Assembly (NCBI RefSeq): GCF_040676915.1
Contig: NZ_JBFAPY010000006.1
Coordinates: forward strand, 538,277-602,276
Source: Asanoa sp. NPDC049475
GTDB taxonomy: Bacteria; Actinomycetota; Actinomycetes; Mycobacteriales; Micromonosporaceae
Direction: 5' to 3'
Length of the DNA stretch: 64,000 nt
Positions 19,813 to 55,646 of this stretch are shown piece after piece; position 1 is the first letter of the stretch; every line of letters begins with the position of its first letter. Below the pieces are notes generated by a model. The model saw only the letters and a list, made by a program, of their open reading frames with translations. It made no database searches and was not told the DNA's origin. A program made the translations under genes and the position numbers.

Positions 19813-20664
19813 ATGAGACTGACCGAGGCGGAGAGCGGCCGCATCGCTGCGCTGCTCGACACTCACACCGAGAAGCTGACCGCGAGCTGGACCGACGCGG
19901 TCGCGGCGTCGCTGCGCGGGCGCCTGACGAGGACCGAGCTGCTCAAGCAGGTGCAGGATCTGCACCGGGCGATCCTCGAATCGCTGCGCTCCGGCGACTC
20001 CGACCTGACCGGTGACGGCTCGGGCGCCCTGCGCGCCGCGCTCGTCGACCTGTCCCGCAGCCGCGCCCGGCAAGGGTTCAGCGCTCCTGAGACCGCCGTC
20101 ACCGTGTTCGGGCTCAAGAAGGCGCTCTTCGACGTCGTCGACGTGCGCGCCGCCGAGCCGCAGGTCCTCACCGACCTGATCGCGGCCGGGCTGATGATCG
20201 ACGACCTGGGCCTGTTCACCTTCGAGAGCTACTCCAAGACCCGCGAGGAGCTGATCGCCGACCAGGCCGAGCAGCTCCTGGAGCTGGCCACACCGGTGGT
20301 CAAGCTGTGGGAGGGCGTCGTCGCGATCCCGCTGGTCGGCACCCTCGACTCGGCGCGAGCCCAGGTGGTCATGGAACGCCTGCTGGAGACGCTGGTCGAC
20401 ACGGGCTCGCCGTACGCCATCATCGACATCACCGGCGTGCCGGCCGTCGACACCCAGGTCGCCCAGCACATCCTCAAGACCGTGGTGGCGGCCCGGCTGA
20501 TGGGCGCCGAGTGCATCATCTCCGGCATCCGCCCGCAGATCGCCCAGACGATCGTCGCCCTCGGCATCGAGTTCGGCGACATCGCCACGAAGGCGACGCT
20601 CGCCGACGCGCTCCGGCACGCACTGCGGATGATCGAGTCGGCACGCAAGGGCCGGAGCAACTGA
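19813..20664 (+). CDS. rsbR: RsbR-like stressosome sensor protein (N-terminal non-haem globin-like domain plus C-terminal STAS domain)
   Basis: The C-terminal STAS domain (…VKLWEGVVAIPLVGTLDSARAQVVMERLL…IIDITGVPAVDTQVAQHIL…) is typical of RsbR. It heads an operon with overlapping RsbS and RsbT genes. Confidence 0.8.
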   Translation: MRLTEAESGRIAALLDTHTEKLTASWTDAVAASLRGRLTRTELLKQVQDLHRAILESLRSGDSDLTGDGSGALRAALVDLSRSRARQGFSAPETAVTVFGLKKALFDVVDVRAAEPQVLTDLIAAGLMIDDLGLFTFESYSKTREELIADQAEQLLELATPVVKLWEGVVAIPLVGTLDSARAQVVMERLLETLVDTGSPYAIIDITGVPAVDTQVAQHILKTVVAARLMGAECIISGIRPQIAQTIVALGIEFGDIATKATLADALRHALRMIESARKGRSN

Positions 20665-21092
20665 TGGAACGCGTCCCGGTCCTCAAGATCGGCGACATCC
20701 TGCTCGTCTCCATCCAGGTCGACATGCAGGACCAGACCGCGCTGGCGCTTCAGGAGGACCTCGCCGACCGGATCGTCGCGACCGGTTGCCACGGTGTGAT
20801 CATCGACATCACGGCGCTCGACATCGTCGACTCGTTCGTCGGCCGGATGCTCTCCTCGATCGCCTCGATCTCCCGGGTGCTCGACGCGGAGACGGTGGTG
20901 GTCGGGATGCGCCCGGCCGTGGCCATCACGCTGGTCGAGCTCGGCCTCTCGCTCGACGGCATCCGCACCGCGCTCAACGTCGAGCGGGGCATGGAGCTGC
21001 TGGCCCAGGCCCGGGCGAACCACCACGACCTGGGCCTCGACCTCGACGAACTCGGCGACCTCGACAGCTTCGGCCCGACGGCGACGCCGTGA
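20664..21092 (+). CDS. rsbS: RsbS-like STAS-domain stressosome scaffold protein
   Basis: It overlaps the RsbR stop in a TGATG arrangement. It is a single STAS domain (…PVLKIGDILLVSIQVDMQDQTALALQEDL…VIIDITALDIVDSFV…). Confidence 0.8.
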   Translation: MERVPVLKIGDILLVSIQVDMQDQTALALQEDLADRIVATGCHGVIIDITALDIVDSFVGRMLSSIASISRVLDAETVVVGMRPAVAITLVELGLSLDGIRTALNVERGMELLAQARANHHDLGLDLDELGDLDSFGPTATP

Positions 21093-21508
21093 CCACCGAC
21101 GTCGGGCTCGGCGAGCCACAGGTCGTCACCATCGCCGCCGACGAAGACGTGGTCCGCGTGCGCCAGTTGGTGCGCACCGTCGCGGTCGCGGCGAAGCTGT
21201 CGCTGGTCGACCAGACCAAGCTGGTCACCGCCGCGAGCGAGCTGGCCCGCAACACCCTCGTGTACGGCGGTGGCGGCGGCGCCGAGGTGACCGTGATCGA
21301 CGGAGGCCGGCGCAAGGGCATCCGCATCGTCTTCCGTGACGACGGCCCCGGCATCGCCGACCTCGACCTGGCGCTGACCGACGGATACACCACCGGCGGC
21401 GGGCTCGGCCTCGGGCTCAGCGGCGCCCGTCGGCTCGTCGACGAGTTCGACATCGACACGGCGGCCGGCCAGGGCACCCGGATCACCGTCACGAAATGGG
21501 CGCGGTAG
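21089..21508 (+). CDS. rsbT: RsbT-like serine/threonine kinase (HATPase_c, switch kinase of the stressosome)
   Basis: A GTG start overlaps the RsbS stop. The GHKL ATPase motifs are …LARNTLVYGGGG… and …DDGPGIADLDLAL…GLGLGLSGARRL…. Confidence 0.75.
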   Translation: MTTDVGLGEPQVVTIAADEDVVRVRQLVRTVAVAAKLSLVDQTKLVTAASELARNTLVYGGGGGAEVTVIDGGRRKGIRIVFRDDGPGIADLDLALTDGYTTGGGLGLGLSGARRLVDEFDIDTAAGQGTRITVTKWAR

Positions 21509-22518
21509 CGGTGACCCGCGACAGCGGGCTCGTCGACGGCGGACTCTGGTTCCGGCTCGACGAGTCCAGCGCGGTCAGTGCGGTCCGCCGGGCCGCACAG
21601 GACCTCGGCAACGAGGTGGGGCTTCCCGCCAACCAGGTCGGCGCGCTCGGGATCGTCGCCACGGAGCTGGCCAGCAACCTGGTGAAGCACGCCGACGACG
21701 GCCGGTTGATGCTGCGTGCGGTGCGCACCGGCGACGTCGCGGGCGTCGAGCTCGTGGCGGTCGACTCCGGCCCCGGCATGGGCGACCTCGCGCGGTCGGC
21801 GCGGGACGGGCACTCCACCGCCGGCACGCTCGGCATCGGCCTCGGCGCCATCGCCCGCCAGGCGGGCTGGCTCGACATGAGCTCGGTCGCCGGCCGCGGC
21901 ACGGTCGCCATCGCCCAGGTCTGGCCCGGCCCCGCACCGACGCCCGCCCGAGCGGCCGCGATCAGCCGGGCGATGAGCGGCGAGGAGGTCTGCGGCGACG
22001 GCTACGCGGTGCGCGTCGCGGACGGCCGCACCCAGGTGCTGGTCTGCGACGGGCTCGGGCACGGGCCGTTGGCGGCGGCCGCGACCTCGGCGGTGGTGCA
22101 GGCGTTCCACGTCGCTCCGGCCGGGCCTCCCGCGGCGGTGGTCGAGCATCTGCACCGTGCCGTGCGACACACCAGGGGCGCCGCCGTCGCGGTCGCCCAA
22201 CTCGATGACGACGAGATCAGGTACGCCGGACTCGGCAACATCACCGGAGTCCTCGTCGACGACACCACCCGGCGCGGCCTGGTCTCGCTCCCCGGCATCG
22301 CCGGTCACCAGCGCCGCGCGGTCCGGGAGTTCGGCTATCCCGTCACCCCGGACGCGCTGCTGGTCATGCACTCCGACGGTGTCGTCGACCGGTGGAACCT
22401 CGACGACTACCCCGGGCTGCGCGGGCGTTCGCCGCAGGTGATCGCCGCCACCCTCGTACGCGATGCCGGTGTGCGGCGGGACGACGCGTGCGTGCTGGTG
22501 GCGAGGGCCGGCCGATGA
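21496..22518 (+). CDS. Fusion protein: N-terminal RsbT/RsbW-like HATPase kinase domain plus C-terminal PP2C (SpoIIE) phosphatase
   Basis: The N-terminal part has …ATELASNLVKHA… and …VDSGPGMGDL…GTLGIGLGAIAR…. The C-terminal PP2C motifs are …CGDGYAV… and …VCDGLGHGPLAAAA…. It overlaps RsbT by 13 bp. Confidence 0.75.
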   Translation: MGAVAVTRDSGLVDGGLWFRLDESSAVSAVRRAAQDLGNEVGLPANQVGALGIVATELASNLVKHADDGRLMLRAVRTGDVAGVELVAVDSGPGMGDLARSARDGHSTAGTLGIGLGAIARQAGWLDMSSVAGRGTVAIAQVWPGPAPTPARAAAISRAMSGEEVCGDGYAVRVADGRTQVLVCDGLGHGPLAAAATSAVVQAFHVAPAGPPAAVVEHLHRAVRHTRGAAVAVAQLDDDEIRYAGLGNITGVLVDDTTRRGLVSLPGIAGHQRRAVREFGYPVTPDALLVMHSDGVVDRWNLDDYPGLRGRSPQVIAATLVRDAGVRRDDACVLVARAGR

Positions 22519-23861
22519 CCACCCGCCTGCTGCACGTGGTGCTGCGTACCGAATCCGACGTGTTCGTGGCCCGGCAACGGGCCCGCGAGGTGGCCGAGGC
22601 GGTCGGCCTCGAACACCAGGACCAGGTGCGGCTGGCCACCGCTCTCAGCGAGGTCGGCCGAACCCTGTTCACGGCCAGGGGCGGACCGCCGGCCACCGGC
22701 GCCGAAGTGTGGTTCGCGGTCAACGGTGGGAAACTCGATGTCGAGGTCGTCGCGATCGGCCCGAGCCAGGCGGCGCAGCTGCCGAGCCTCGGTCGCCTGG
22801 TCGACAGCCTGACGATCGACGACGGACCGACGACGACGGTGGTGCGGATGAGCCGGCGGATCCCGGGTGGGGTCGAGCTGACGCCCGACGACCTCGACCG
22901 CGTCCGCGACGCGCTGGCCGCGTCGGCGCCACGCACCCCGCTCGACGAGATGGCCGAGCAGAACGAGCAGCTGCTCGCCGCGCTCGAGGAGACCCGGGCG
23001 CATCGCGACGACCTGGTCCGGCTCAACGCCGAGCTCGAGGAGACCAACCGCGGTGTGATGGCCCTCTACACCCAGCTTTCCGGCGAGCTGGAGGAGACCA
23101 ACCGCGGCGTGGTCGCGCTCTACGCCGAGCTCGACGAGCGATCCGCCCAGCTGCGGGCGGCGAGCGAGGCGAAGACCCGGTTCCTGGCCAACGTGAGCCA
23201 CGAGCTGCGAGCGCCGGTCACGGCGGTGATCGGGCTGGCCCGGCTGCTCGACGACCCCGAGTCGGACCCGCTGACCGGCGACCAGACCCAACAGGTGGCA
23301 CTGATCCGCGGTTCCGCCGACGACCTGCTGCGTCTGGTGAACGACCTGCTGGACCTGGCCAAGGCCGAGTCGGGCACGATCGAGCCGGACTGGTCCGAAG
23401 TGGACCTGCGTGCGCTGTTCAGCCAACTGCGGGGCACCGTGCGGGCCATGGCCACCGGCGCCGTCGAGCTCGTGGTCACCGACCCGGAGCAACCCGCGAC
23501 GATCCGCTCCGACGAGGTGCTGCTCGCCCAGGTGCTGCGCAACCTGCTGCACAACGGGCTCAAGTTCACGACCGCCGGCGAGGTGCGGATGACCGCGACG
23601 CGCAGCGGCGACGAATGGCTGATCCAGGTCTCCGACACCGGCGTCGGCATCCCGGCGGAGCTGCACGAGCGGATCTTCGAGGAGTTCTACCAGGTGCCCG
23701 GCCGCACGCTTGCCGGCGTGAAGGGCACAGGGCTCGGCCTGCCGTACGCCCGCCGCCTGGTCACCCTGCTCGGCGGCACACTGAGCGTGGCCAGCGAGCC
23801 CGGCGCGGGCAGCACGTTCACCGTCCGGCTGCCGGCGGCGGAGCACTATGGAGCATCCTGA
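22515..23861 (+). CDS. Histidine kinase (HisKA plus HATPase_c) with an N-terminal RsbT-like (GHKL-like) domain and a coiled-coil linker containing a tandem 17-aa repeat
   Basis: It overlaps the upstream gene in an ATGA arrangement. The H-box is ANVSHELRAPV and the G-box region is …SDTGVGIP…GTGLGLPYARRL…. The first ~120 aa resemble the N-terminal domain of the preceding kinase-PP2C protein. Confidence 0.8.
   Translation: MTTRLLHVVLRTESDVFVARQRAREVAEAVGLEHQDQVRLATALSEVGRTLFTARGGPPATGAEVWFAVNGGKLDVEVVAIGPSQAAQLPSLGRLVDSLTIDDGPTTTVVRMSRRIPGGVELTPDDLDRVRDALAASAPRTPLDEMAEQNEQLLAALEETRAHRDDLVRLNAELEETNRGVMALYTQLSGELEETNRGVVALYAELDERSAQLRAASEAKTRFLANVSHELRAPVTAVIGLARLLDDPESDPLTGDQTQQVALIRGSADDLLRLVNDLLDLAKAESGTIEPDWSEVDLRALFSQLRGTVRAMATGAVELVVTDPEQPATIRSDEVLLAQVLRNLLHNGLKFTTAGEVRMTATRSGDEWLIQVSDTGVGIPAELHERIFEEFYQVPGRTLAGVKGTGLGLPYARRLVTLLGGTLSVASEPGAGSTFTVRLPAAEHYGAS
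23031..23135 (+). repeat. Near-identical tandem 51-nt repeat inside the histidine kinase gene, encoding ELEETNRGV(M/V)ALY(T/A)(Q/E)L(S/D) twice
   Basis: The unit gagctcgaggagaccaaccgcggtgtgatggccctctacacccagctttcc is followed by gagctggaggagaccaaccgcggcgtggtcgcgctctacgccgagctcgac. Confidence 0.7.
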
Positions 23862-25404
23862 GTCCGCCACGGTGCTGGTCGTCGACGACAGCGACGCCAA
23901 GCGCTACCTGCTGGTCCGCTGGTTGACCCGGGCCGGGCTCACCGTGGTCGAGGCCGACAGCGGCACGGCCGCGCTGGAGCGGGTGGCGCACGGTGACATC
24001 GACCTGGTCGTGCTCGACGTGCGCCTGAGCGACATGAGCGGCTTCGAGGTCGCCGAGCAGATCAAGTCGCATCCGGTGCTCGCGGCGATCCCGGTCATCC
24101 ACGTGTCGGCGCACGCGGTCGACGTCGCCGACCGGGCACAGGGCCTGACCCGGGGAGCCGACGCCTACCTGGCCGAGCCGATCGAGCCCGACGAGCTGGT
24201 GGCGACGGCGCACGCGGTGCTGCGGTACTACCGTGCCCGCCGACAGGCCGAGACGCTGGCCGCGGGGTTGACCCGCCTCGCCGAGACGACGGTCGCGGTC
24301 AACTCGGCGCGTACGCTCACCGAACTGTTGACCGCCGCCTCGCTCGGGGCGGCCGAGATCTTCGGCAGCGGCGCGGTGGTCGCGGCGGACACGGTCACCG
24401 CGGGCAGCTCGGCCGGCGATCGCTTGGTGGCCGCGGTCACCGACCCGACGGGGCCGCCGATCGTCCGCGAATGGCCCGCCGCGACGGCGGTCGTACCGGT
24501 CGGCGCGATGGTCCGCAGCGACCCCCGCGAACAGTGGCCGCAACTCGACTGGCCGGGCGACGAGGTCGCGGTCGGCACCGCCCGCATTCGCGGCGACCGG
24601 CCGCCGCTGCACGTGGCCATCCCGGCCAGCGCGCTGCGCGACCAGGCCGACGTGCTCCGGCTCCTGGTCCAGGCGTTGGCGACGGCGGTCGAGGCGCAGC
24701 GGACGTACGACGAGGAACACCGGATCGCGGTCACCCTCCAACGCAGCCTGTTGCCGCAACGGATTCCCGAGGTGCCGGGCTACGACCTGGCGGTCCGCTA
24801 CATGCCGGCCAGCGCCCAAACCGAGGTCGGTGGCGACTTCTACGAGCTGACGATGATCGACGGGCAGCTCCTGGCGGCGATCGGTGACGTCACGGGCCAC
24901 TCCCTCTACGCCGCGACGGTCATGGCCGAGCTTCGGCACGCGGTCCGGGCGTACGCGGTCGAAGGCCACCCGCCGGCGACGTTGTTGGCGATGACCGACC
25001 AGTTGCTGCGCAAGCTGTTGCCGGGCGAACTGGCCACGATCTGCGTGCTGATGCTCGACCCGGCGACGGGCCAGATCTGCCTGGCGAACGCCGGCCATCT
25101 GCCACCGGTGCTGATCGTCGACGGAGTGGTGACGTTTGTCGAACACCCGGCACCACTGCTCGGCATCGACGCACCTCGGCCGGGCGACCTCGACCTGGTC
25201 CTCCCGCCGGGCGGCACGCTCGTCCTCTACACGGACGGCCTGATCGAACGCCGAACCCACGACATCGACCACGGCCTGGCCGAGCTCGCGGAAGCTGCGA
25301 GGGAGGTCGACCCGGACCTGGAACGCTACGCCGACCACCTGCTGTCCCTGGCCACTCCCCCGGTCGGCGACGACATAGCCGTGGTCGCCCTGCACCGACA
25401 CTGA
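23848..25404 (+). CDS. Response regulator (REC domain) fused to a PP2C/SpoIIE serine phosphatase (RsbU/RsbP-like output)
   Basis: The REC domain is …VLVVDDSDAKRYLL…DLVVLDVRLSDMSG…. The PP2C motifs are …GGDFYEL…, …GDVTGHSLYAA… and …LVLYTDGLIE…. It overlaps the kinase by 14 bp. Confidence 0.8.
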   Translation: MEHPESATVLVVDDSDAKRYLLVRWLTRAGLTVVEADSGTAALERVAHGDIDLVVLDVRLSDMSGFEVAEQIKSHPVLAAIPVIHVSAHAVDVADRAQGLTRGADAYLAEPIEPDELVATAHAVLRYYRARRQAETLAAGLTRLAETTVAVNSARTLTELLTAASLGAAEIFGSGAVVAADTVTAGSSAGDRLVAAVTDPTGPPIVREWPAATAVVPVGAMVRSDPREQWPQLDWPGDEVAVGTARIRGDRPPLHVAIPASALRDQADVLRLLVQALATAVEAQRTYDEEHRIAVTLQRSLLPQRIPEVPGYDLAVRYMPASAQTEVGGDFYELTMIDGQLLAAIGDVTGHSLYAATVMAELRHAVRAYAVEGHPPATLLAMTDQLLRKLLPGELATICVLMLDPATGQICLANAGHLPPVLIVDGVVTFVEHPAPLLGIDAPRPGDLDLVLPPGGTLVLYTDGLIERRTHDIDHGLAELAEAAREVDPDLERYADHLLSLATPPVGDDIAVVALHRH

Positions 25405-30399: not shown

Positions 30400-30993
30400 C
30401 CGGTGGGCGACTTCATCGACACGACTCTGGGCTTTCCGTCCGTGGTCTTCACCGTCCTGCTGACGGTCGTCGTCTGCTATTGGATCGTCGTGCTGGCGGG
30501 TGGGCTCGACACCGAGACCGACGGCGGGCTCGACGGCATTCTCGACCGGCTCGGGCTCGGTGGCACACCGGCGACGATCGTGCTGTCCATTGTGGTCGCG
30601 GTTGCCTGGTTCGCGAGTCTCGTCGGCACGGTCGTGCTGCCCGACAACGCCGTCTTCGAGGTCCTGGTGCTGGTCGCCAGCCTGGTGGTCGGCTGGGCCG
30701 TCGCCAACCTGCTTCGCCGGCCGTTGCGCCGGTTCTTCCCTACCGCGCCCGAGGCTTCTCGTCATGACTTCGTCGGCCGGGAGTGCGTCATTCGCACCGG
30801 CCGCGTGGCCATCGACTTCGGCCAGGCCGAGGTGCACGCCGCCGACGGGTCGTCGGCCATCGTGCAGGTGCGCCAGACCGGTGTCGACACGTTCGCGGTC
30901 GGCACCCGCGCGGTCATCTACGACTACGACTCCGCCGGCGAGTTCTTCTGGGTCGTGCCGGCCGACCTCTCGAATCGATCGAAGGACCGTTGA
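30400..30993 (+). CDS. NfeD-like / YqiJ-like (DUF1449-type) membrane protein: N-terminal TM helices plus a C-terminal OB-fold domain. It is the first gene of the flotillin operon.
   Basis: Only one frame gives a sensible protein (…FTVLLTVVVCYWIVVLAGGL…LVLVASLVVGWAVANLL… then …VIRTGRVAIDFGQAEVHAADGSSAIVQVRQ…). It ends TGATG-coupled to the flotillin gene. The start is uncertain: GTG 30400 is the first in-frame start, while the only good SD (GAGGAA) precedes an out-of-frame ATG at 30384. Confidence 0.5.
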   Translation, partial: PVGDFIDTTLGFPSVVFTVLLTVVVCYWIVVLAGGLDTETDGGLDGILDRLGLGGTPATIVLSIVVAVAWFASLVGTVVLPDNAVFEVLVLVASLVVGWAVANLLRRPLRRFFPTAPEASRHDFVGRECVIRTGRVAIDFGQAEVHAADGSSAIVQVRQTGVDTFAVGTRAVIYDYDSAGEFFWVVPADLSNRSKDR

Positions 30994-33008
30994 TGGACGT
31001 CATCTCGCTCGGGTTCCTCGTCCTCGTCGTGGTGCTCATCCTCGTACTCCTTGGCGTCCTGCTGCTCGTCAGCCGGCTGTTCAAGAAGGTCGAGCAGGGC
31101 AAGGCGCTGATCATCTCGAAGACCCGCAAGGTGGACGTCACGTTCACCGGTGCCGTGGTGCTGCCGGTGTTCCACAAGTCCGAGATCATGGACATCTCGG
31201 TGAAGACCATCGACATCGAGCGGTCCGGCAACGACGGCCTGATCTGTCAGGACAACATCCGGGCCGACATCAAAATCACCTTCTTCGTGCGCGTCAACAA
31301 GACCGCCGAAGACGTGGTGAAGGTGGCCCAGGCGATCGGCACCGCGCGCGCCAGCGACCAGGCGACGCTCCAGGAGCTGTTCAGCGCCAAGTTCTCCGAG
31401 GCGCTGAAGACGGTCGGCAAGCAGCTCGACTTCGTCGACCTCTACACCAAGCGCAACGAGTTCCGCGACCGCATCCTCGCCGTCATCGGCACCGACCTCA
31501 ATGGATACTCGCTCGAGGACGCGGCGATCGACGTGCTGGAGCAGACTCCGCTCGACCAGCTCGACCCGCGCAACATCCTCGACGCGCAGGGCATTCGTAA
31601 GATCACCGAGCTGACCGCCACCGAACACGTGCGCACCAACGAGTTCCGGCGCAACGAGGAGAAGGAGATCACACGCCAGAACGTCGACGCGAAGGAAGCC
31701 ATACTCGAGCTGGAGCGCCGACAGGCCGACGCGGAGATCAAGCAGAAGCGCGAGATCGACACCATGCGGGCACGCGAGGAGGCCGAGACCGAGCTGGTCC
31801 GGGCCGAGCAGCGGCTGCGCTACAACTCCGCGAACCTGCGCACCGACGAGCAGCTCGGCGTCCAGCGGGAGAACCAGGCCCGGGAGATCGCGGTCGCGGA
31901 GAAAAACCGGGAACGCGTCATCGCGATCGAGACCGAGCGGATCGAGAAGGACCGCATGCTCGAGGTGATCGGTCGCGAGCGGGAGACCGAGCTCTCGACG
32001 ATCGCCAAGAACAAAGAGGTCGAGGCGGAGAAGCGGTCGATCGCCGAGGTGATCCGCGAGCGGATCGCCGTGGAGAAGACCGTCGCCGAGCAGGAGGAGC
32101 ACATCAAGCGCCTGCGGGTGGTCGAGGAGGCCGAGCGCCTGCGCCAGTCGACGATCATCCAGGCCGAGGCGATGGCGCAGGAGAACCTGGTCAAGGACAT
32201 CAAGGCGGCCGAGGCCGCGGAGGTTTCGGCCAAGCACCGCGCCCGCGAGCAGCTCGTCCTCGCCGAGGCCCGGCAGCAGGCCGCCGAGCTCGACACCCGG
32301 GCGAAGATCCGGCTGGCCGAAGGCGCGCAGGCCGAGGCAGCCGCCGCCGGGCTGGCCGACGTGCAGGTGCGCGAGCGCGACGCCGAGGCGATCGAGAAGG
32401 TCGGCCGGGCCGAAGCGGTGGTCGAGCGGGAGAAGGCGATCGCGGCGGCCGAGGGCATGCGCGAGAAGCTCAAGGGCGAGGCCGAGGGTCTGACCGAGAA
32501 GGCGGCCGCGATGGCGGCGCTGGACGACGCGACCCGCGAGCACGAGGAATACCGCCTTCGCCTGGAGGCCGAGAAGGAGATCCGGCTCGCCGGCATCGAC
32601 GTGCAGCGGCAGGTGGCCGAGGCGCAGGCCGAGCTCATCGGCAAGGGCCTCGAGAAGGCCGACATCGACATCGTCGGCGGCGACAGCATCTTCTTCGACC
32701 GCCTGATCGGCGCGATCTCGACGGGCAAGAGCGTCGACGGCTTCGTCGGCAACTCGACCGTGGCCACCTCGCTGGCCGGCCCGTGGCTCGACGGCTCGTC
32801 CAGCTTCGCCGACGACCTCGGCAAGCTGCTCGGCAAGGTGAACACGGCCGACGTGACCAACTTGACCCTCTCGGCGTTCCTGCTCCAGCAGATCAAGGCA
32901 GGCGGCAACGACTCCGGCAAGCTGCGCGAGCTCCTGACGGCCGCCGAGAAGCTCGGTGTCGCGGACGCGCCGCTGGCCGCGCTCAACTCGTCGGCCGCCC
33001 GTGGCTGA
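30993..33008 (+). CDS. Flotillin-family SPFH/Band-7 protein (FloT/YqiK-like) with a long coiled-coil C-terminal region
   Basis: An N-terminal membrane anchor LGFLVLVVVLILVLLGVLLLV is followed by the SPFH domain (…ALIISKTRKVDVTF…VLPVFHKSEIMDISVKTIDI…) and an extended Glu/Ala/Arg-rich coiled coil. It is TGATG-coupled to the NfeD-like gene. Confidence 0.85.
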   Translation: MDVISLGFLVLVVVLILVLLGVLLLVSRLFKKVEQGKALIISKTRKVDVTFTGAVVLPVFHKSEIMDISVKTIDIERSGNDGLICQDNIRADIKITFFVRVNKTAEDVVKVAQAIGTARASDQATLQELFSAKFSEALKTVGKQLDFVDLYTKRNEFRDRILAVIGTDLNGYSLEDAAIDVLEQTPLDQLDPRNILDAQGIRKITELTATEHVRTNEFRRNEEKEITRQNVDAKEAILELERRQADAEIKQKREIDTMRAREEAETELVRAEQRLRYNSANLRTDEQLGVQRENQAREIAVAEKNRERVIAIETERIEKDRMLEVIGRERETELSTIAKNKEVEAEKRSIAEVIRERIAVEKTVAEQEEHIKRLRVVEEAERLRQSTIIQAEAMAQENLVKDIKAAEAAEVSAKHRAREQLVLAEARQQAAELDTRAKIRLAEGAQAEAAAAGLADVQVRERDAEAIEKVGRAEAVVEREKAIAAAEGMREKLKGEAEGLTEKAAAMAALDDATREHEEYRLRLEAEKEIRLAGIDVQRQVAEAQAELIGKGLEKADIDIVGGDSIFFDRLIGAISTGKSVDGFVGNSTVATSLAGPWLDGSSSFADDLGKLLGKVNTADVTNLTLSAFLLQQIKAGGNDSGKLRELLTAAEKLGVADAPLAALNSSAARG

Positions 33009-36000
33009 GCAGGCCACGGCAACTCTGGACGCCGGCACCTATGAGGTCCTGCGCGACCGGCTGGCGGCGCGGTCCGCCGAGCTGGCCAGCCGGGCGGAGG
33101 AGCTCAACGCCCGGCGGCTGGCCGAGTTCGGCAGCACCGAGCTCCGGCTGGTCGGCACCGACCGGGTCCGCACCGAGCACAACTGCGTGCCGCGCGACAT
33201 CGTGCCGGCCGCCGGCGTGATGCTGTTCGGCTACAACGTGTTCCTGGGCCTCAAGCCCGAGACCTCGGTCGGCGACGTGTTCTCGCTGCACCGGTTCCTG
33301 CGCGACGGCGACGCCTTCCGGTTCGACGACGTGCCGCCGGCCGAGGTGCCCGGGTTGCTCGACGACGAGACGTTCCAGCGCGACTTCGCGGAGCTCTACC
33401 GCTACTACCGGGAGACCCGCCTCGCCACGCTGCGCGAGGTCGACGGGAAGCTGCTCGCCGTCTTCCAGACCGGCCCGCGCACCGAGGACATCCGCGTGCT
33501 GCGCTGGGCCACGGCCCCGGACGGCACCGTCGCATACGTCGACAACCGGGGTGAGCGCGACCACGTCTTCCCGCCCAGCCACGACCTTGAGTGGGTGGAG
33601 ACCACCCGCGACGACCACGTGCTCGGCCGGCACCCGCACATCTCGATCGCCGGTGAGCTGTTCGTGGAGACGGTCGGCGGCGACCTCACCCTCAAGATCG
33701 AAGACAACACCGAGTCCGGCGAAGGCATCTACGCGGAGCCGGTGGAGCAGCCGCTGCAGAGCCTGGCCGACGCCGACGTGCACTGGGCGCGGGTCGGTCC
33801 GCTGATCCTGCTCCGCGTCCGGCCGTACAAGGAAAGCGCCTGGCGTCATCTGGTCTTCAACACGCGCACCAAGGACGTGGTGCGGCTCGACGGCATCGGG
33901 CAGTCCTGCCAGCGGCTGCCGGAGGACCACGGGATCATCTTCCCGGGCGGCTACTACCTGACCACGGGCGTGGTGAAGACGTTCGAGACCGACACGGCCG
34001 ACCTGGTGTTCGAGCGGCTGATCCGGTCACCCAACGGCGAGGACGTGCTCTACGTCTTCCACGCGGTCGTCGAGGGACGCAGCCTGCTGCTGCCCTACAA
34101 CGTGATCCGCAAGGAGGTCGCGACGCCGCTCGCGTGCCACGGCTACTCGCTGTTCGACGACGGCACGCTCGTGGTCTTCCGGGCCACCTCCGACGAGCCG
34201 ACCCGCGTACACCCGATGCAGGTCTGGCAGACCCCGTTCCGATCCGACGCGTACGCCGCCCGCCAGCCCGCCGGCACCGGCCCGCTGGCCCGGGTGGGCA
34301 ACGCCGATCTCGTCCGCGGCATCTCCGACGCGCTGTCGGTGGCGCGGATGGTCGGCGAGATGAGCCCGTCGGTGCCGGTGTTCGAGGCGCTGATCGCCGC
34401 GTGCGTGCGGGTCTTCGACCACTACCACTGGCTGGGCGAGGCGGAGCTGTGCGACCTGCGCACCCCGCTCGCCGAGGTACGCGCGACCGCCGAACAGGTG
34501 CTCGACGAGTACGAGCGCGTGCAGGCCCTCACCGCCGCCGCCGGCACCGCACTGGACACGGCCGCGGCCGATCTGGCCTCGCTCCTGCGCCGGGTCAACG
34601 GCGAACCACCGACGAGCACCGACGGCTGGATCCGCCAGCTCGCCGACCTGCGTCGCGCCCAGGGTCACCTGGAGACACTGCGGGAGCTGCGCTACGTCGA
34701 CCTGGCCCGGATCGACGCACTGGCCGCGGAGCTGGCCGCCGAGCTCGACGCCACGGCCCGGCGGGCGGTCGGTTTCCTCGAGCGCGACGACGCGTTCGCC
34801 GCTTACGGCGCCGAGGTCGAGCGGCTCACCGCCGAGGGTGCCGAGGTGCCCACCGTCGCGGCCGCCGCACCGGTCGGCGAGAAGCTCACCGAGCAGGCCG
34901 ACGCGCTGCGCCTGGTGACCGACGTGGTCGGCACGCTGGACATCGCGGACGCGACCGTGCGCACCGCCATCCTCGAACGAATCGGCGACGTGCTCGGCGC
35001 GGTCAACCGGGCGCGGGCCACCCTCGAAGCCCGCCGCCGCGAGCTGGCCGCGGTCGAGGGCCGGGCCGGCTTCGCGGCCGAGTTCGCGCTGCTCAACCAG
35101 GCCGTGACCGGCGCACTGGCGGCCTGCGACACCCCTGAGGCGTGCGACGACCAGCTCGGCCGTCTGCTGCTCCAGGTGGAGGTCCTGGAGTCCCGCTACG
35201 GCGAGTTCGACGACTTCCTGACCGAGCTCTCGACCAAGCGCACCGACGTCTACGAGGCGTTCTCGGCCCGCAAGCAGGCACTGGTCGATGAGCGCTCGCG
35301 GCGCGCGGACCGCCTGGTCGAGTCGGCGGACCGGATCCTGACCAGCGTCCGCCGCCGCGCGTCCACGATGGACACTCTCGACGACGTCAACACGTACTTC
35401 GCCGGCGACCCGATGGTGGCCAAGCTCCGCTCGGTCGCCGACGAGCTGCGCGCGCTCGGCGACGCGGTCCGCGGCGAAGAGCTCGACGGCCGGGTCAAGG
35501 CGACCCGGCAGGAGGCCGGCCGGGCGCTGCGCGACCGGATCGACCTGTTCCGCGACGGCGGCGAGACGATCCAGCTCGGCCGGCACCGGTTCGCCGTCAA
35601 CACCCAGGCGATCGAACTGGCGCTGGTGCCGCACGACGGGGCCATGGCGGTCGCGGTCACCGGCACCGACTTTCGCGCGCCGGTCGACGATCCGGAGTTC
35701 CGCACGACCGGCGAGTTCTGGGACCAGCCGCTGGTCTCCGAGTCGCCGTCGGTCAGTCGCGCGGAGTTCCTGGCCACCTCGATCCTGGCCACGGCCGACC
35801 TTGACGCGCTGCACGCGGCCGCCGCCGGCGGCACCCTGGGCGAGCTGGTGCGGCGGGCCGCCGAGGAGCGCATCGACGAGGGCTACGAGCGGGGCATCCA
35901 CGACGCCGACGCCACCGCGGTCCTCGACGCGCTGCTGCGCCTGCACGCCGGCGCCGGCCTGTTGCGCTACCCGCCGGCGGCCCGGGCGGCGGCCCAGCTC

Positions 36001-37872
36001 TTCTGGGCCCACGGCGCGGCCGAGGCGACGAAGCCACTGTGGACCCGCCGAGCCGCGTCGCTCGCCCGCGCCCGCGCGGCGTTCGGGGGCTCACCGGCGA
36101 TCGACGAGCTCCAGGCCGAGTTGTCGGCTGCGGTCACCGCCTTCGTCGGTGGCCCGGGACTGCCCGACCATCCGCTGGCCGGCGAGTATCTGTTCGAGGA
36201 GCTGGCCGCGGGCAACGGCTTCGGCACCAGCGCGGGCGCCAGGTCGCTGCTGGCCGGTTTCCGCAAGGCGCTGGGCCGCCCGCGCGCCCGCGAGCTCGAC
36301 GAGGACCTACGCGCGCTCGGCACGGACCTGGCCGCGCGGCACCAGCTCGTCGAGGCCTGGCTGGCCGCGTACGCGGGGCAGAGCGAGTTCCTGGCCGAAG
36401 CGGTGGCGATCGAGCTCTGTGACGTCCCGCGGTACGAATCGTCGGCCGAGCTGACCGCGACCGTCGACGGCCTGCTGGGCACGCACCCCCGGATCGTCTC
36501 GCGGCAGCTCACGTTGCGGCTGGACGAGGTGCTGGCCCGCACGGCAGGGTTCCGGGACAACCGGGTGCCGGCATACCGCGCGTACCAGCGGCTCCGAACG
36601 CGGGTCGCAGAGGAGGCCGGCCGGCGGCTGCGGCTGGACGAGCACAAGCCGCGGGTGATGTCGGGCTTCGTGCGCAACCGCCTGCTCGACGAGGTCTACC
36701 TACCGTTGATCGCCGACAACCTGGCCCGGCAGGTCGGCGCGGCCGGTGACGCCAAGCGCGTCGACCAGTCCGGCCTGCTGCTGCTCATCTCCCCGCCCGG
36801 CTATGGCAAGACCACGCTGATGGAGTACGTGGCCAGCCGCCTCGGGCTGGTTTTCGTCAAGGTCAACGGCCCGGCCCTGGGCACCGCGGTCACGTCGGTC
36901 GACCCGGCGTCAGCTCCCGACGCGACCGCGCGCCAGGAGGTCGAGAAGATCTCGTTCGCGCTGGAGATGGGCAGCAACGTGCTGCTCTACCTGGACGACA
37001 TCCAGCACACGTCGCCCGAGCTCCTCCAGAAGTTCATCTCGCTGTGCGACGGCCAGCGCCGCATGGAGGGGGTCTGGAACGGCCAGACGCGGACGTACGA
37101 CCTGCGCGGCAAACGGTTCGCGGTGTGCATGGCCGGCAACCCGTACACCGAGTCGGGCAAACGCTTCCGGGTGCCCGACATGCTCGCGAACCGCGCGGAC
37201 GTGTGGAACCTGGGCGACGTGCTGTCCGGTCGGGACGAGCTGTTCGCGCTCAGCTACGTCGAGAACGCGCTGACCGCCAACCCGGTGCTGGCTCCACTGT
37301 CCACTAGGGATAGAGGGGACGTGGAGCTGCTGGTCCGCATGGCCCGGGGCGACACGTCCGTGCTGCCGGACCAGCTCGCACACCCGTACCCGGCGGTCGA
37401 GCTCACCCAGATCCGTTCGGTGCTGGGCAAGCTGCTGCGGGTGCGCGACGTGGTGCTGTCGGTCAACCGGGCCTACATCGCGTCCGCGGGCCAGGACGAC
37501 GCGTCCCGCACGGAGCCGCCGTTCCTGCTCCAGGGCTCGTACCGCAACATGAACAAGCTCGCCGAGCGCATCCTGCCGGTGATGAACGACGACGAGCTGG
37601 AAGCGGTCCTCGACGACCACTACGTCGGCGAGGCCCAGACGCTGGCCGCGGCGGCCGAGGCGAACCTGCTCAAGCTGGCCGACCTGCGGGGCCGGCTGAC
37701 CCCGTCGCAGGCGGCTCGCTGGTCGGAGGTCAAGGCGGCCTACCTGCGCCAGCGCGCCCTCGGCGGCGCCGACGACGACCCGATGGCCCGCGCGGTCGGC
37801 GCGGTCGGCCTGGTCGCCGACCGCATCAGCGAAGTCGAAGCAACCCTAAGAAGATCAATTTCCGGAGCATGA
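33001..37872 (+). CDS. Giant (about 1620 aa) protein with a C-terminal MoxR/AAA_5-type AAA+ ATPase domain. The first ~1200 aa are of unknown function and include long helical/coiled-coil segments.
   Basis: Walker A is LLLISPPGYGKTTL (about 36790-36830) and Walker B is VLLYLDDIQH (about 36980-37010). The signature …RFAVCMAGNP…RVPDMLANRADVWNL… is typical of AAA_5/MoxR. The GTG at 33001 overlaps the flotillin stop by 8 bp (GTGGCTGA); an alternative ATG lies at 32956. Confidence 0.75.
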   Translation: MAEQATATLDAGTYEVLRDRLAARSAELASRAEELNARRLAEFGSTELRLVGTDRVRTEHNCVPRDIVPAAGVMLFGYNVFLGLKPETSVGDVFSLHRFLRDGDAFRFDDVPPAEVPGLLDDETFQRDFAELYRYYRETRLATLREVDGKLLAVFQTGPRTEDIRVLRWATAPDGTVAYVDNRGERDHVFPPSHDLEWVETTRDDHVLGRHPHISIAGELFVETVGGDLTLKIEDNTESGEGIYAEPVEQPLQSLADADVHWARVGPLILLRVRPYKESAWRHLVFNTRTKDVVRLDGIGQSCQRLPEDHGIIFPGGYYLTTGVVKTFETDTADLVFERLIRSPNGEDVLYVFHAVVEGRSLLLPYNVIRKEVATPLACHGYSLFDDGTLVVFRATSDEPTRVHPMQVWQTPFRSDAYAARQPAGTGPLARVGNADLVRGISDALSVARMVGEMSPSVPVFEALIAACVRVFDHYHWLGEAELCDLRTPLAEVRATAEQVLDEYERVQALTAAAGTALDTAAADLASLLRRVNGEPPTSTDGWIRQLADLRRAQGHLETLRELRYVDLARIDALAAELAAELDATARRAVGFLERDDAFAAYGAEVERLTAEGAEVPTVAAAAPVGEKLTEQADALRLVTDVVGTLDIADATVRTAILERIGDVLGAVNRARATLEARRRELAAVEGRAGFAAEFALLNQAVTGALAACDTPEACDDQLGRLLLQVEVLESRYGEFDDFLTELSTKRTDVYEAFSARKQALVDERSRRADRLVESADRILTSVRRRASTMDTLDDVNTYFAGDPMVAKLRSVADELRALGDAVRGEELDGRVKATRQEAGRALRDRIDLFRDGGETIQLGRHRFAVNTQAIELALVPHDGAMAVAVTGTDFRAPVDDPEFRTTGEFWDQPLVSESPSVSRAEFLATSILATADLDALHAAAAGGTLGELVRRAAEERIDEGYERGIHDADATAVLDALLRLHAGAGLLRYPPAARAAAQLFWAHGAAEATKPLWTRRAASLARARAAFGGSPAIDELQAELSAAVTAFVGGPGLPDHPLAGEYLFEELAAGNGFGTSAGARSLLAGFRKALGRPRARELDEDLRALGTDLAARHQLVEAWLAAYAGQSEFLAEAVAIELCDVPRYESSAELTATVDGLLGTHPRIVSRQLTLRLDEVLARTAGFRDNRVPAYRAYQRLRTRVAEEAGRRLRLDEHKPRVMSGFVRNRLLDEVYLPLIADNLARQVGAAGDAKRVDQSGLLLLISPPGYGKTTLMEYVASRLGLVFVKVNGPALGTAVTSVDPASAPDATARQEVEKISFALEMGSNVLLYLDDIQHTSPELLQKFISLCDGQRRMEGVWNGQTRTYDLRGKRFAVCMAGNPYTESGKRFRVPDMLANRADVWNLGDVLSGRDELFALSYVENALTANPVLAPLSTRDRGDVELLVRMARGDTSVLPDQLAHPYPAVELTQIRSVLGKLLRVRDVVLSVNRAYIASAGQDDASRTEPPFLLQGSYRNMNKLAERILPVMNDDELEAVLDDHYVGEAQTLAAAAEANLLKLADLRGRLTPSQAARWSEVKAAYLRQRALGGADDDPMARAVGAVGLVADRISEVEATLRRSISGA

Positions 37873-52214: not shown

Positions 52215-55200
52215 CTAGTTGCGCTTCAAAACGTCCGCGATCTCGCCGCTGTCGAGCTCCGACAGCAGTGCCAGCGCGGCGTGCCATTGCTCCCGGGCGA
52301 TGGTGCCGAGGCCGTTCGCGCGGGCGATGTCGCCGAGGAGCCGCAGGGAGCGCGCCTCACCGAGCCGGTGGCCCGTCTGTCGGTGCAGGGTGAGCGCGCG
52401 CTGTCCACTGTCGACAGCGCCGTCGATGTCGCCGTTCCGCAGGTGGATGCTGCCGAGCAGCAGGTGGGCGTTGCCGGCCAGCACCCGGTGTCCGGCGCGC
52501 CAGGCGTGGGCCAGCGCGTCGGCGGCGACGGTCGTCGCGGAGGCCGGATCGCCGGTGTCCCGCAGTGCCGCGGCGAGGCCGATGGTGGTCCGCGTGCGCA
52601 CGTACTCGCTTCCGGTGCCCAACATCGCCAACCCGCGCCGGTGCTCCTCGACGGCCCGCTGCGGGTCGCCGAGCCAGTGGTGCACGGTGCCGAGCAGCGA
52701 CAGGATGTCGCCCTCGACCATCGGGTCCGCCGCTTCCCGGGCCTTGACCAGGGCGGCCTCCGCGTTGGCCAGGGCCTCGGTCAGCTCGCCGCGGTCGCGT
52801 TGCACGGCGGCCAGTCCACCGAGCAGGTGCGCCTCCGAGTACGCCTTCGCCACGTCGGACTGGAGCTCCATCGCGGCCCGGAACCGGTCGGCGGCGGTCG
52901 CTTCGCCCAGCAGGTGCTCGACCGCGCCGAGGTTGTTCAGCGCGATCATCTGGCCGATCGAGGACCCGATCTCCTCGTGCATGGCCAGCGCCGTCACGCA
53001 GTAGTCCGCCGCCCGGCGGAGCTCGCCCAGATCGTGATAGAGCCCGCCGAGCGTGATCAGCGTGCTGGCCTCGCCGGGCCGGTACTCGTTGGCCCGGTGC
53101 AGCTCCAACGCCCGTTCACTGCTGCGCGCCGACCCCGCGAAGTCGCCCATGTTCTTGAGGACCACGCCGAGGTTGCCGGCCGCGGCGGCCTGCCCGCGCG
53201 ACCAGCCGGCCCGGTCGGAGAGCTCGGCGGCCGTCTCGAACTCGGCCGCCGCACCGGCGAGGTCACCCTGGTTCTGCCGGGCCAGCGCGATGCTGGTGCG
53301 CATCGCGGCCTGGGCCTGCAGGTCACCCTCCGCCTCGGCGGCCCCGAGGCTGGCATTGACCGCGGCGAGCCAGTCGACGGTGTGGCTGCCCTGCCAGAAG
53401 TAGCCGCGCAGGGCGTCGGTGAGCTGCCACGCCCCGGCCTTCGGGCCGGCCGAGGCGGCATGGCCGATCGCGGCGAGCAGGTTGCGGTGCTCGGCGTCCA
53501 GCCACGCCAGCGCGGCCGGGTTGGAGTCGAAGCCGGCCACCTCCGGAAGCTCCGCGAGCGGCAGCCGGATCATGTGCGGATAGAGCCGCCGCGCTGCCGC
53601 GTCGGCCGTGGCCAGATAGTGAGCATGCAGGCCGCCCAGGGCCACCGCGGCTTCGTCGTCGCCGGTCAGCTCGCGGGCGTACGTGCGGAGCAGGTCGTGC
53701 AGGCCGAACCGCCCCGGCCGGGGCGTGGTGACCAGGTGCGCCTTGCGGAGGCCGTCGAGCGCGCCGGCGGCCGCGGCCCGGGTCAGCCCCGCGAGCGCGG
53801 CGGCCCCGGCGGCGTCGACGTCTGTGCCGGGCACGGCGCCGAGCAGCCGGAACACGTCGCGCTCCAGCGGGCCGAGCCGCTCGTAGGAGGCGCGGAAGGT
53901 CGCTCGCACACCGGACAGCTCGTCGCCCTCGATCGTCAGCCGGTCGAGCGGACCCTTGTCGAGCAGGCGGAGGTAGTCACCCAGCGTGGTCGCCGGCTCG
54001 GCGTCGAGCTGCGCGGCGGCGATCCGCACGGCGAGCGGGAGAAGGCCGCAGGCGCGTACGAGGTCGGCCGCGGCGGCCGGCTCGGCATCGACCCGGCGCT
54101 CGCCGATGATCGTGCGGAGCAGCAGCAACGCCTCGGGCTCCGTGAGCAGGTCGACGGTGAGCCGCCGAGCGCCGTGGCTGGCGGTCAGGCCGCCGAGCTG
54201 AGCGCGGCTGGTCACGACCACCACGCACGTCGGCGCGCCCGGCAGCAGCGGCCGCACCTGCTCGGCGGTGGCGGCGTTGTCGAGCACCATCAGCACCCGA
54301 CGGCCGGCGATCTCACTCCGGAACAGCGCGCCGGCTTCGTCGGGGTCGGGCGGAATGCGATCACCGGGTACGCCGAGCGCGCGCAGGAACCGGGCCAGCG
54401 CGTCGACGGGCCGGACGGGAGGCGCCGACTCGTACCCCCGGAGGTTGACGAAGAGCTGCCCGTCGGGGAACCGGTCGGCGACGTGGTGCCCCCAGCGGAC
54501 GGCGAGAGCGGTCTTGCCGACCCCACCGGCACCGTCGATCGCGGAGATGACCACCGGCGTGCGGCCGGCGGTGAGCAGCTCGTCGAGCTGTCCGAGCAGC
54601 GCGGTCCGCCCGACGAAATCGGGCACGGCGGCCGGGAGCTGAGCGGGCAGCTTCCCGGCCGGTGCCGGGCGCAGTGCCGGGTCGTCGCGCAGGATCTGGG
54701 TGTGCAGCCGGCGGAGCTCGTCGCCGGGCTCCAGGCCGAGCTCGGTGCGGACCCGGTCGCGGATCCGCCCGTACGCGGCCAGCGCGTCAGGCCGCCGCCC
54801 GTCCCGGAAGAGCGCGGTCATCAGATGCCCGGCGAGCCGCTCGTCCAGCGGCGCCCCCGCGCACAGCTCGGTCAGCTCACCGACCAGCTCGCCGTGGCGC
54901 CCGGTCTCGAGATCGGCGGCGATCCGCAGGTCGAGCGCGGTCCTGCGGCCCTCTTCGAGCCGGGCGGCCAGCCGCTCCCGCCCGGGCCCGACATCTTCGA
55001 GGGCCGGCCCCCGCCAGAGCGCCAGGGCGTCCCGAAGCAGCTCGGCGCGGTGGTGGGGGTCGTCGCTGTCACGGGCCTCTGCCACGAGCGCGGCGAACTG
55101 GTGCGCGTCGACCGTCTTCGGGTCGACGTCGATCCGGTAGGAGCCGTTGGTCAGCTCGATCCGGGCCGCGTCACCGAGCAGGGCCCGCAGCCTCGAGATG

Positions 55201-55394
55201 TAGGTCTGCACGACGCCGCGCGCGCCACGCGGGGGCTCGCCCTCCCAGATCAGCTCGACCAGGCGCCCGACGGGCACGCCCTGGCCGGCCTCGAGCAGCA
55301 GGATGGCCAGCACCCACCGCTCCTGCCGCCGCCCGATCCCGACACGACCGCCACAGACACTGACCTCGACCGGACCGAGCAGGCGAAACTCCAC
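52215..55394 (-). CDS. AfsR-type large SARP regulator: N-terminal OmpR-like winged helix plus BTAD, a central NB-ARC/P-loop NTPase, and a C-terminal TPR array
   Basis: The start is the GTG at 55394 (VEFRLLGPVEV…). Walker A is GAGGVGKT, and TPR repeats run to the C-terminus. The first 365 codons of the track ORF are shadow frame and were rejected. Confidence 0.8.
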   Translation of the reverse strand: MEFRLLGPVEVSVCGGRVGIGRRQERWVLAILLLEAGQGVPVGRLVELIWEGEPPRGARGVVQTYISRLRALLGDAARIELTNGSYRIDVDPKTVDAHQFAALVAEARDSDDPHHRAELLRDALALWRGPALEDVGPGRERLAARLEEGRRTALDLRIAADLETGRHGELVGELTELCAGAPLDERLAGHLMTALFRDGRRPDALAAYGRIRDRVRTELGLEPGDELRRLHTQILRDDPALRPAPAGKLPAQLPAAVPDFVGRTALLGQLDELLTAGRTPVVISAIDGAGGVGKTALAVRWGHHVADRFPDGQLFVNLRGYESAPPVRPVDALARFLRALGVPGDRIPPDPDEAGALFRSEIAGRRVLMVLDNAATAEQVRPLLPGAPTCVVVVTSRAQLGGLTASHGARRLTVDLLTEPEALLLLRTIIGERRVDAEPAAAADLVRACGLLPLAVRIAAAQLDAEPATTLGDYLRLLDKGPLDRLTIEGDELSGVRATFRASYERLGPLERDVFRLLGAVPGTDVDAAGAAALAGLTRAAAAGALDGLRKAHLVTTPRPGRFGLHDLLRTYARELTGDDEAAVALGGLHAHYLATADAAARRLYPHMIRLPLAELPEVAGFDSNPAALAWLDAEHRNLLAAIGHAASAGPKAGAWQLTDALRGYFWQGSHTVDWLAAVNASLGAAEAEGDLQAQAAMRTSIALARQNQGDLAGAAAEFETAAELSDRAGWSRGQAAAAGNLGVVLKNMGDFAGSARSSERALELHRANEYRPGEASTLITLGGLYHDLGELRRAADYCVTALAMHEEIGSSIGQMIALNNLGAVEHLLGEATAADRFRAAMELQSDVAKAYSEAHLLGGLAAVQRDRGELTEALANAEAALVKAREAADPMVEGDILSLLGTVHHWLGDPQRAVEEHRRGLAMLGTGSEYVRTRTTIGLAAALRDTGDPASATTVAADALAHAWRAGHRVLAGNAHLLLGSIHLRNGDIDGAVDSGQRALTLHRQTGHRLGEARSLRLLGDIARANGLGTIAREQWHAALALLSELDSGEIADVLKRN

Positions 55395-55646
55395 GCCGAC
55401 CGACCTTATAGAGCTGCACAACCGGACGAAACCCCAGACGGTAAGCGATCCGGTATGCGCGGTCCGCCACGCTGTCCCCATCGGGGGCGGCGAGGGTCGC
55501 GACTCACCGCAAAGCGGCACCGACGGTGGGGCGGTGCCGCTTCGTCCCCGACGGCTGTGGCGGAGGCGGCCGCCTCCGGCATCCGGGGTCGTGAGACGTA
55601 GCGTGTAACTGTGGATGCACCGCCGGTCGTTGTTGATCGCCCGGTT

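Follow-up and report, generated by a model that had tools for sequence, protein, structure and literature searches.

A three-gene flotillin cassette in Asanoa

A 64,000-nucleotide stretch of DNA from Asanoa sp. NPDC049475 (contig NZ_JBFAPY010000006.1, positions 538,277 to 602,276 of the forward strand; the whole stretch is called the window below) encodes a giant AAA+ ATPase with an N-terminal arm of some 1200 residues, which is the subject of this analysis. The window is high in G+C (about 72%). The ATPase gene is the last of three genes that overlap end to end on the + strand:

30403–30993, + strand: small membrane protein, first gene of the cassette; 196 residues, GTG start, identical to WP_364361986.1 ('hypothetical protein')
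30993–33008, + strand: flotillin-family (SPFH/Band 7) protein; 671 residues, identical to WP_364361984.1 ('flotillin family protein')
33001–37872, + strand: giant AAA+ ATPase; 1623 residues with a GTG start, as read from the open reading frame

With the GTG at 33001 as its start, the ATPase is identical to the RefSeq protein WP_364361982.1, which is annotated as 'DNA repair ATPase' in Asanoa sp. NPDC049518. The stop codon of the small protein overlaps the ATG of the flotillin by 1 nucleotide (TGATG at 30991–30995), and the flotillin stop and the ATPase GTG overlap by 8 nucleotides (GTGGCTGA at 33001–33008). Overlaps of this kind are the usual signature of translational coupling. As judged from this arrangement, the cassette is translationally coupled, and the ATPase gene is its third member, behind those of a putatively YqiJ/NfeD-like membrane protein and of a flotillin. 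The cassette is flanked by an amidohydrolase gene upstream and by an M19 dipeptidase gene downstream on the opposite strand.

The flotillin carries a Pfam Band_7 domain at residues 32–175 and, by hydropathy, one N-terminal transmembrane segment, and its tail is long, helical and rich in Glu, Ala and Arg. The small protein has, by hydropathy, hydrophobic segments within residues 4–107, and its C-terminal part is beta-rich. Whereas both partners thus possess hydrophobic or transmembrane segments, the ATPase has no transmembrane segment (19-residue hydropathy maximum 1.5). The small protein matched no Pfam or NCBIfam model. Its homologues include a Hymenobacter protein (E = 1.6e-11) labelled DUF1449 by the NCBI Prokaryotic Genome Annotation Pipeline (PGAP). 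That protein itself matches neither Pfam nor NCBIfam, and the putative placement of the small protein as a YqiJ/YuaF-like (NfeD-like) partner follows the PGAP annotation of this homologue. The Hymenobacter protein lies on a plasmid of Hymenobacter sp. DG25B (locus L089, 3777–4427), where it is named 'DUF1449 family protein' by PGAP and has no Pfam match at E ≤ 0.01.

Ravi et al. (mSystems 2024, PMC11237479) have described an operon of a flotillin, a YqiJ/YuaF-type protein with three transmembrane segments and an AAA+ ATPase with an N-terminal helix or coiled coil and a beta-propeller. The operon sometimes adds a CesT/Tir-PspA pair, and abbreviated operons without the pair are widespread. The window holds the flotillin gene and an ATPase in which a helix (residues 13–43) and a propeller (residues 49–410) were modelled; in its Pfam families, in the order of its domains and in its set of three genes, with the small protein as the putative YqiJ-type member, the cassette agrees with the published operon, and nothing essential differs. 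The window cassette is the abbreviated form of this flotillin-PspA-associated operon, without the CesT/Tir-PspA pair. The ATPase is already catalogued: it has a RefSeq entry, part of it falls within two Pfam DUFs, and the operon and its gross architecture were published in 2024. New here are the predicted structure of the stretch of 800 residues that links the propeller to the AAA+ module, the invariant rod within this stretch, and the lack of any relative of this region among solved structures.

Family membership of the ATPase

An earlier sequence-only reading of this DNA had assigned the N-terminal region to no recognisable family and found no motifs in it. This was overturned by two full-length Pfam matches and by the conservation of the region across distant bacteria. 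DUF3686 (PF12458) matched residues 27–476 over profile positions 1–448 of 448 with 732.2 bits against a cutoff of 25 (E = 2.3e-220). DUF7902 (PF25472) matched residues 597–681 over profile positions 1–85 of 85 with 100.1 bits against a cutoff of 26 (E = 8.2e-29). NCBIfam and PADLOC scans of the ATPase returned nothing meaningful.

A word-indexed search identified more than 7382 homologues. The best 120 of these are 68–94% identical to the query, all carry both DUF3686 and DUF7902, nearly all also match AAA-type families, and most bear the NCBI product name 'DNA repair ATPase'. An exhaustive HMMER search with residues 1–1200 as the query gave 1404 clusters at 50% identity, whose full-length members are colinear with the query over residues 1–1199 down to 27–30% identity. 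Members from Bacteroidota and Planctomycetota were recovered by a profile search, and further homologues were found in Myxococcus, Deinococcus, Proteus, Pseudomonas, Halomonas, Vibrio and Photobacterium and in metagenome-assembled genomes (MAGs) of Deltaproteobacteria and Clostridia. The family ranges over Actinomycetota, Bacteroidota, Planctomycetota, Myxococcota, Gammaproteobacteria and Deinococcus. Across actinomycete families about 70% identity is retained over 1600 residues, and comparison of the homologues indicates that the ATPase is under unusually strong purifying selection.

Predicted structure of the N-terminal arm

AlphaFold2 models were calculated for residues 1–1200 and 411–1200, each from an alignment of 44 sequences with 27–94% identity to the modelled segment. 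The mean predicted local distance difference test (pLDDT) values were 83.9 and 88.5, respectively. Together with the Pfam matches and motif positions, the models divide the protein, up to the AAA+ core, as follows:

33037–33129, + strand: N-terminal helix (residues 13–43; AlphaFold2 pLDDT 78–93)
33145–34230, + strand: beta-propeller of about 27 strands, the core of DUF3686 (residues 49–410; Pfam, model and Foldseek)
34246–34422, + strand: helical linker at the end of DUF3686 (residues 416–474; Pfam and models)
34459–35550, + strand: helical rod (residues 487–850; pLDDT 82–94) including DUF7902 (residues 597–681)
35566–35682, + strand: small beta unit (residues 856–894; models)
35758–36597, + strand: compact, mostly helical domain with few strands, directly before the AAA+ module (residues 920–1199; pLDDT 90–96)
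36778–37155, + strand: AAA+ ATPase core (Pfam AAA_5 and AAA; motif positions)

The beta-rich character that had been proposed for the N-terminal end, on the basis of peptides at residues 169–202 (nucleotides 33505–33606) and 211–235 (nucleotides 33631–33705), was borne out by the strands modelled at residues 49–410. When the model of residues 1–1200 was compared with the Protein Data Bank (PDB) by Foldseek, essentially only proteins containing a beta-propeller were returned (E = 2e-5 to 1e-3, with low template modelling (TM) scores), among them IFT-A, Elp1, paraoxonase, the clathrin terminal domain plus linker, prolyl oligopeptidase and Ski8. The modelled fold of residues 49–410 is a beta-propeller, which Foldseek confirms while naming no specific relative, and it is probably seven-bladed. 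The motifs HPH.S, ET.GGDLT.K.E.NT..G.G, LP...G..F..GYYL and SPNGED are invariant in the propeller across phyla. Such conservation is unusual for a pure scaffold and points to a predicted face for specific binding or catalysis.

Beyond the propeller, the sequence-only reading had described several hundred residues of helices rich in Ala, Leu, Arg and Glu. The composition held, these four residues making up 43–58% of every 100-residue window from 501 to 1200, and residues 416–849 and 920–1199 are mostly helical in the models. The uniformity did not, as the region falls into three parts. The small beta unit that interrupts the helices is preceded by a hinge of low confidence (pLDDT below 50 in the model of residues 1–1200, and about 54–68 in that of residues 411–1200). 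The beta-unit region spans 63–65 residues in all homologues measured, while that of the compact domain, at 276–383 residues, is the most length-variable part of the N-terminal region. Length variation is concentrated in residues 916–1200 and in the C-terminal tail; the linker and the beta unit are nearly as constant as the rod.

The model of residues 411–1200 had no match in the PDB at E ≤ 1e-3 by Foldseek (best E = 0.1), and in particular no confident match to a known enzyme fold. The match of best probability was to beta-spectrin repeats (E = 0.31, TM scores 0.16 and 0.32). The compact domain (residues 920–1199) likewise had no significant PDB fold match.

A helical rod of fixed length

The rod is modelled as ten helices of about 48, 22, 26, 15, 27, 58, 21, 51, 26 and 28 residues (residues 487–849), joined by loops of only 3–6 residues. 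Its length was measured in 115 homologues from several phyla, those outside the actinomycetes being about 30–37% identical to the query. Nearly every sequence had exactly 364 residues here: the minimum was 364, the median 364 and the maximum 378, with a standard deviation of 1.3. A length so strictly fixed suggests that the rod may act as a molecular spacer with a geometric role.

The rod weakly resembled the folds of spectrin repeats, three-helix bundles and designed helical repeats. Matches of this bundle type, together with the short loops, point to an intramolecular antiparallel bundle, predicted to be self-contained, rather than a free two-stranded coiled coil. The likeness to the rod repeats of spectrin, alpha-actinin and plakins is one of shape only (E = 0.31, TM scores 0.16–0.32). 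Membership among the spectrin repeats was rejected, since there is no Pfam spectrin match, no significant fold match and no internal repeat; a search of the helical region for internal sequence repeats by hhalign gave probabilities below 10%.

The helices had also been proposed to form a long stalk or coiled coil, a counterpart of the flotillin tail with which it might pair. In this arrangement the rod would be an open intermolecular coiled coil zipping onto the tail. The predicted helices of 48–58 residues are indeed very long, the flotillin tail is likewise long and helical, and the two genes are strictly linked with translational coupling. Identities of the flotillin and of the N-terminal region of the ATPase also co-vary across loci (r = 0.74); this was set aside as evidence of contact, shared phylogeny alone being sufficient to explain it. 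Heptad scans flagged residues 713–756 and 1097–1126 or nothing at all, and had no power, the flotillin tail used as a positive control also scoring zero. Against pairing, loops of 3–6 residues and the high pLDDT of the monomer imply a self-contained antiparallel bundle, no classic long two-stranded coiled-coil protein was found among the top fold matches, and in solved SPFH cages the helical tails build the cage wall. The helical region is therefore not read as a two-stranded coiled coil free to pair, and its zipping onto flotillin is considered unlikely.

The AAA+ module

A single AAA+ module follows the compact domain. Pfam AAA_5 scored 27.6 bits (cutoff 22) and Pfam AAA 26.9 bits (cutoff 21.2). 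Walker A (SPPGYGKTT) lies at residues 1264–1272, so that about 1215–1260 residues precede the module, in agreement with the roughly 1250 first estimated. Walker B (LLYLDDIQH, residues 1328–1336) has Asp-Asp rather than Asp-Glu. Both motifs are invariant in the family and place the module in the AAA+ superfamily. The invariant Asn of CMAGNPY (residues 1376–1382) is the probable sensor-1, and the invariant Arg of ANRAD is a candidate arginine finger, placed by motif order only.

The AAA_5 match raises the MoxR/RavA proteins as possible relatives. These differ in having no counterpart to the N-terminal arm, and the sequence searches matched no RavA or MoxR structure. Membership in MoxR was not adopted despite the AAA_5 match, no VWA gene being present in the window cassette or in nine distant neighbourhoods.

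If the AAA+ module served only for oligomerisation or as a nucleotide switch, the protein could be a static scaffold resembling a membrane coat. A propeller followed by a helical region recalls membrane-coat proteins, IFT-A and the terminal domain plus linker of the clathrin heavy chain are among the top Foldseek matches, and a rod of fixed length suggests a structural spacer. Nevertheless, the IFT-A and clathrin matches have TM scores of about 0.1, and the coat-like resemblance was rejected as a generic propeller match. The helical part is composed of long-helix bundles and not of an alpha-solenoid. The invariance of Walker A, Walker B, the presumed sensor-1 and the Arg-containing motifs across phyla argues for real catalysis. 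A purely static role is judged improbable.

Conservation of the cassette across genomes

Gene context was examined in 80 genome loci, 76 of which have upstream DNA, and nine distant neighbourhoods were inspected. A flotillin homologue (47–81% identity) lies directly upstream of the ATPase on the same strand in all 76 loci with upstream DNA, and a homologue of the small protein lies upstream of the flotillin in 63 of the 80. The genes that flank the cassette in the window are not conserved in the other loci of the set. De novo clustering of the flanking open reading frames (ORFs) found only the trio to be shared, apart from an antisense shadow ORF and a regulator specific to Streptomyces.

The nine distant loci come from Gimesia, Limibacter, a Chitinophagaceae MAG, four metagenomic or MAG contigs, the Pseudomonas plasmid pQBR103 and the Hymenobacter plasmid. 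In all nine the order is a membrane protein of 206–232 residues, a flotillin homologue of 643–722 residues and the ATPase, and the trio thus extends to Planctomycetota and Bacteroidota. The flotillin was confirmed by phmmer in six (E = 1e-104 to 1e-172) and the small protein in eight (E = 5e-22 to 3.5e-6). A gene of CesT/Tir type or with DUF2170, together with PspA, is adjacent in four of the nine (L083, L084, L087 and L089, the last from Hymenobacter); L087 also has genes for an AdoMet decarboxylase, a spermine synthase and an MscS-type channel. On pQBR103 the genes upstream of the cassette encode PspA, a rhomboid protease, DUF2491, DUF350 and DUF1190 proteins and a glutathionylspermidine synthase. 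Linkage of the ATPase to flotillin and the YqiJ-like membrane protein is obligatory, and linkage to PspA is recurrent.

Several further features accompany the cassette in particular groups. The regulator seen in Streptomyces and Embleya (loci L021–L079, 31 of the 80) has about 350–490 residues and a C-terminal helix-turn-helix, PucR/CdaR-like by eye; it lies about 3–4 kb upstream of the ATPase, is in most cases divergent from the cassette, and has no counterpart in the Asanoa window. Two Bacteroidota loci have a small gene with a TerB domain immediately or shortly downstream of the ATPase (L082, 12992–13366; L086, 12429–12830). The cassette of pQBR103, from Pseudomonas fluorescens SBW25 (L088, 85551–104269), sits on an environmental megaplasmid of 425 kb. 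The antisense ORF inside the flotillin gene, present in 44 loci (for example L001, 5907–6371), is almost certainly not a gene but a shadow ORF of the kind typical of high-GC DNA.

These neighbourhoods bear on the name 'DNA repair ATPase', according to which the protein would act on DNA. The name has a single source: Pfam describes DUF3686 as 'ATPase involved in DNA repair', and NCBI derived its product name from there. Weak RuvB_N and RuvB matches over the Walker A region may be added. The RuvB matches are, however, far below cutoff (18.9 against 27 bits and 19 against 282 bits), and no DNA-binding, nuclease or helicase domain was found in the ATPase. In every phylum the conserved neighbours are membrane proteins and not repair genes, and literature searches found no supporting paper. 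A role in DNA repair is regarded as highly improbable.

A large NTPase with a propeller sensor and a membrane effector partner could also constitute a conflict or anti-phage defence module. The cassette of three genes has variable flanks, it is carried by some megaplasmids including pQBR103, the TerB-domain gene follows it in two loci, and the ATPase has weak IetA/IteA matches at Walker A. Nevertheless, the PADLOC matches to IetA reach only about 15 bits and span residues 1252–1288, and there is no PADLOC match for the flotillin, the small protein or the gene upstream. No match to the ATPase was found in 50,697 phage records, and only 13 of 72,556 plasmid records had one, mostly megaplasmids or chromids, several of them chromosome-sized. 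Strong purifying selection and an invariant rod length are atypical of defence genes, and the cassette recurs with PspA, CesT and polyamine genes. Defence is thus a distinctly remote explanation.

A possible role in remodelling membrane scaffolds

SPFH proteins form closed cages, as seen in the 44-mer flotillin dome and in HflK/C, which encloses the AAA+ protease FtsH. PspA is a polymer of the ESCRT-III superfamily. With a soluble AAA+ protein co-translated with a flotillin, and with SPFH cages and PspA polymers as the assemblies at hand, the ATPase is best read as the energy-consuming partner of these scaffolds. It is proposed to be a cytoplasmic AAA+ remodeller that acts on flotillin assemblies, PspA assemblies or both through an arm of a propeller and a fixed-length rod, a function that we infer and to which we give about even weight for and against.

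The ATPase would form oligomers by way of its AAA+ module, as is the rule among AAA+ proteins. The propellers, kept at a fixed distance by the rods, would recognise a partner located at the membrane, and the energy of ATP hydrolysis would be spent on assembling, disassembling or reshaping large membrane-scaffold polymers. In such a machine recognition would fall to the propeller and the rod would be the fixed spacer, the small beta unit would sit behind a flexible hinge, and the compact domain would abut the AAA+ module. The most likely targets would be the flotillin (SPFH) cage and, where they are encoded nearby, PspA/ESCRT-III-like polymers. The role would be in membrane maintenance or in the envelope stress response.

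Two known systems offer parallels. In HflK/C-FtsH an SPFH membrane scaffold is coupled, both genetically and in function, to an AAA+ ATPase, which is a likeness by analogy only. FtsH is a membrane-anchored AAA+ protease of the classical clade, whereas the window ATPase is soluble, has no protease domain, and combines a divergent AAA+ module with an N-terminal arm of 1200 residues; it is not a member of that system. The second parallel is that of Vps4 and ESCRT-III, in that some relatives encode the AAA+ enzyme beside PspA, and it could remodel a polymer bound to the membrane. According to a 2025 review, a Vps4-like ATPase for PspA appears to be absent in bacteria. A bolder proposal is that the DUF3686 ATPase is the missing ring-forming AAA+ partner, which would dock on the flotillin cage, and on PspA polymers where these are co-encoded, and drive their assembly or disassembly; in function it would then be an analogue of Vps4 or an uncoating ATPase. 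This is held as a tentative and rather doubtful possibility.

Several results weigh against a remodelling role. By sequence the ATPase is not a Vps4-type or classical-clade AAA+ protein, and neither an MIT or VWA domain nor any other known substrate adaptor was detected in it. A PDB search with the protein and a 20-sequence profile matched only the Walker A region (E about 1e-3). The predicted template modelling score was about 0.5 in both AlphaFold2 models, which leaves the relative placement of the domains uncertain. No PspA or CesT was found among the 30 window genes scanned. A literature search returned no paper naming DUF3686 or PF12458 and no experiment on any family member; searches on flotillin with AAA or DNA repair ATPases, or on flotillin and ATPases in Streptomyces, returned nothing relevant.

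Other genes in the window

About 5 kb upstream of the cassette, a signalling cluster of partner-switching or stressosome type lies on the + strand (19813–25404). It encodes RsbR_N plus STAS, a HATPase_c_2 plus SpoIIE phosphatase, a HisKA/HATPase_c kinase and a response regulator fused to a SpoIIE phosphatase. Like the genes next to the cassette, it is not conserved at the loci of other genera. The segment 44638–50381 holds a gene on the - strand for an ECF-type sigma factor that carries DUF6596 and, after it on the + strand, genes for a HisKA_3 kinase, a LuxR-type response regulator and an MMPL transporter. A regulator of 1424 residues with Trans_reg_C, BTAD, NB-ARC and TPR domains, an AfsR/SARP-like architecture, is encoded at 52218–56489 on the - strand.

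Implications

The 'DNA repair' name carried by this ATPase family is misleading. The invariant length of the rod and the lack of a solved relative for residues 411–1200 provide concrete handles for further work, as does the presence of the family in tractable hosts, which include Streptomyces, Proteus mirabilis, Pseudomonas fluorescens with pQBR103, and Vibrio. For an ATP-driven component in the dynamics of SPFH and PspA polymers, the DUF3686 family is the obvious candidate. If the proposed analogy with Vps4 is true, an ATPase of this kind exists in a lineage for which reviews currently state that there is none.

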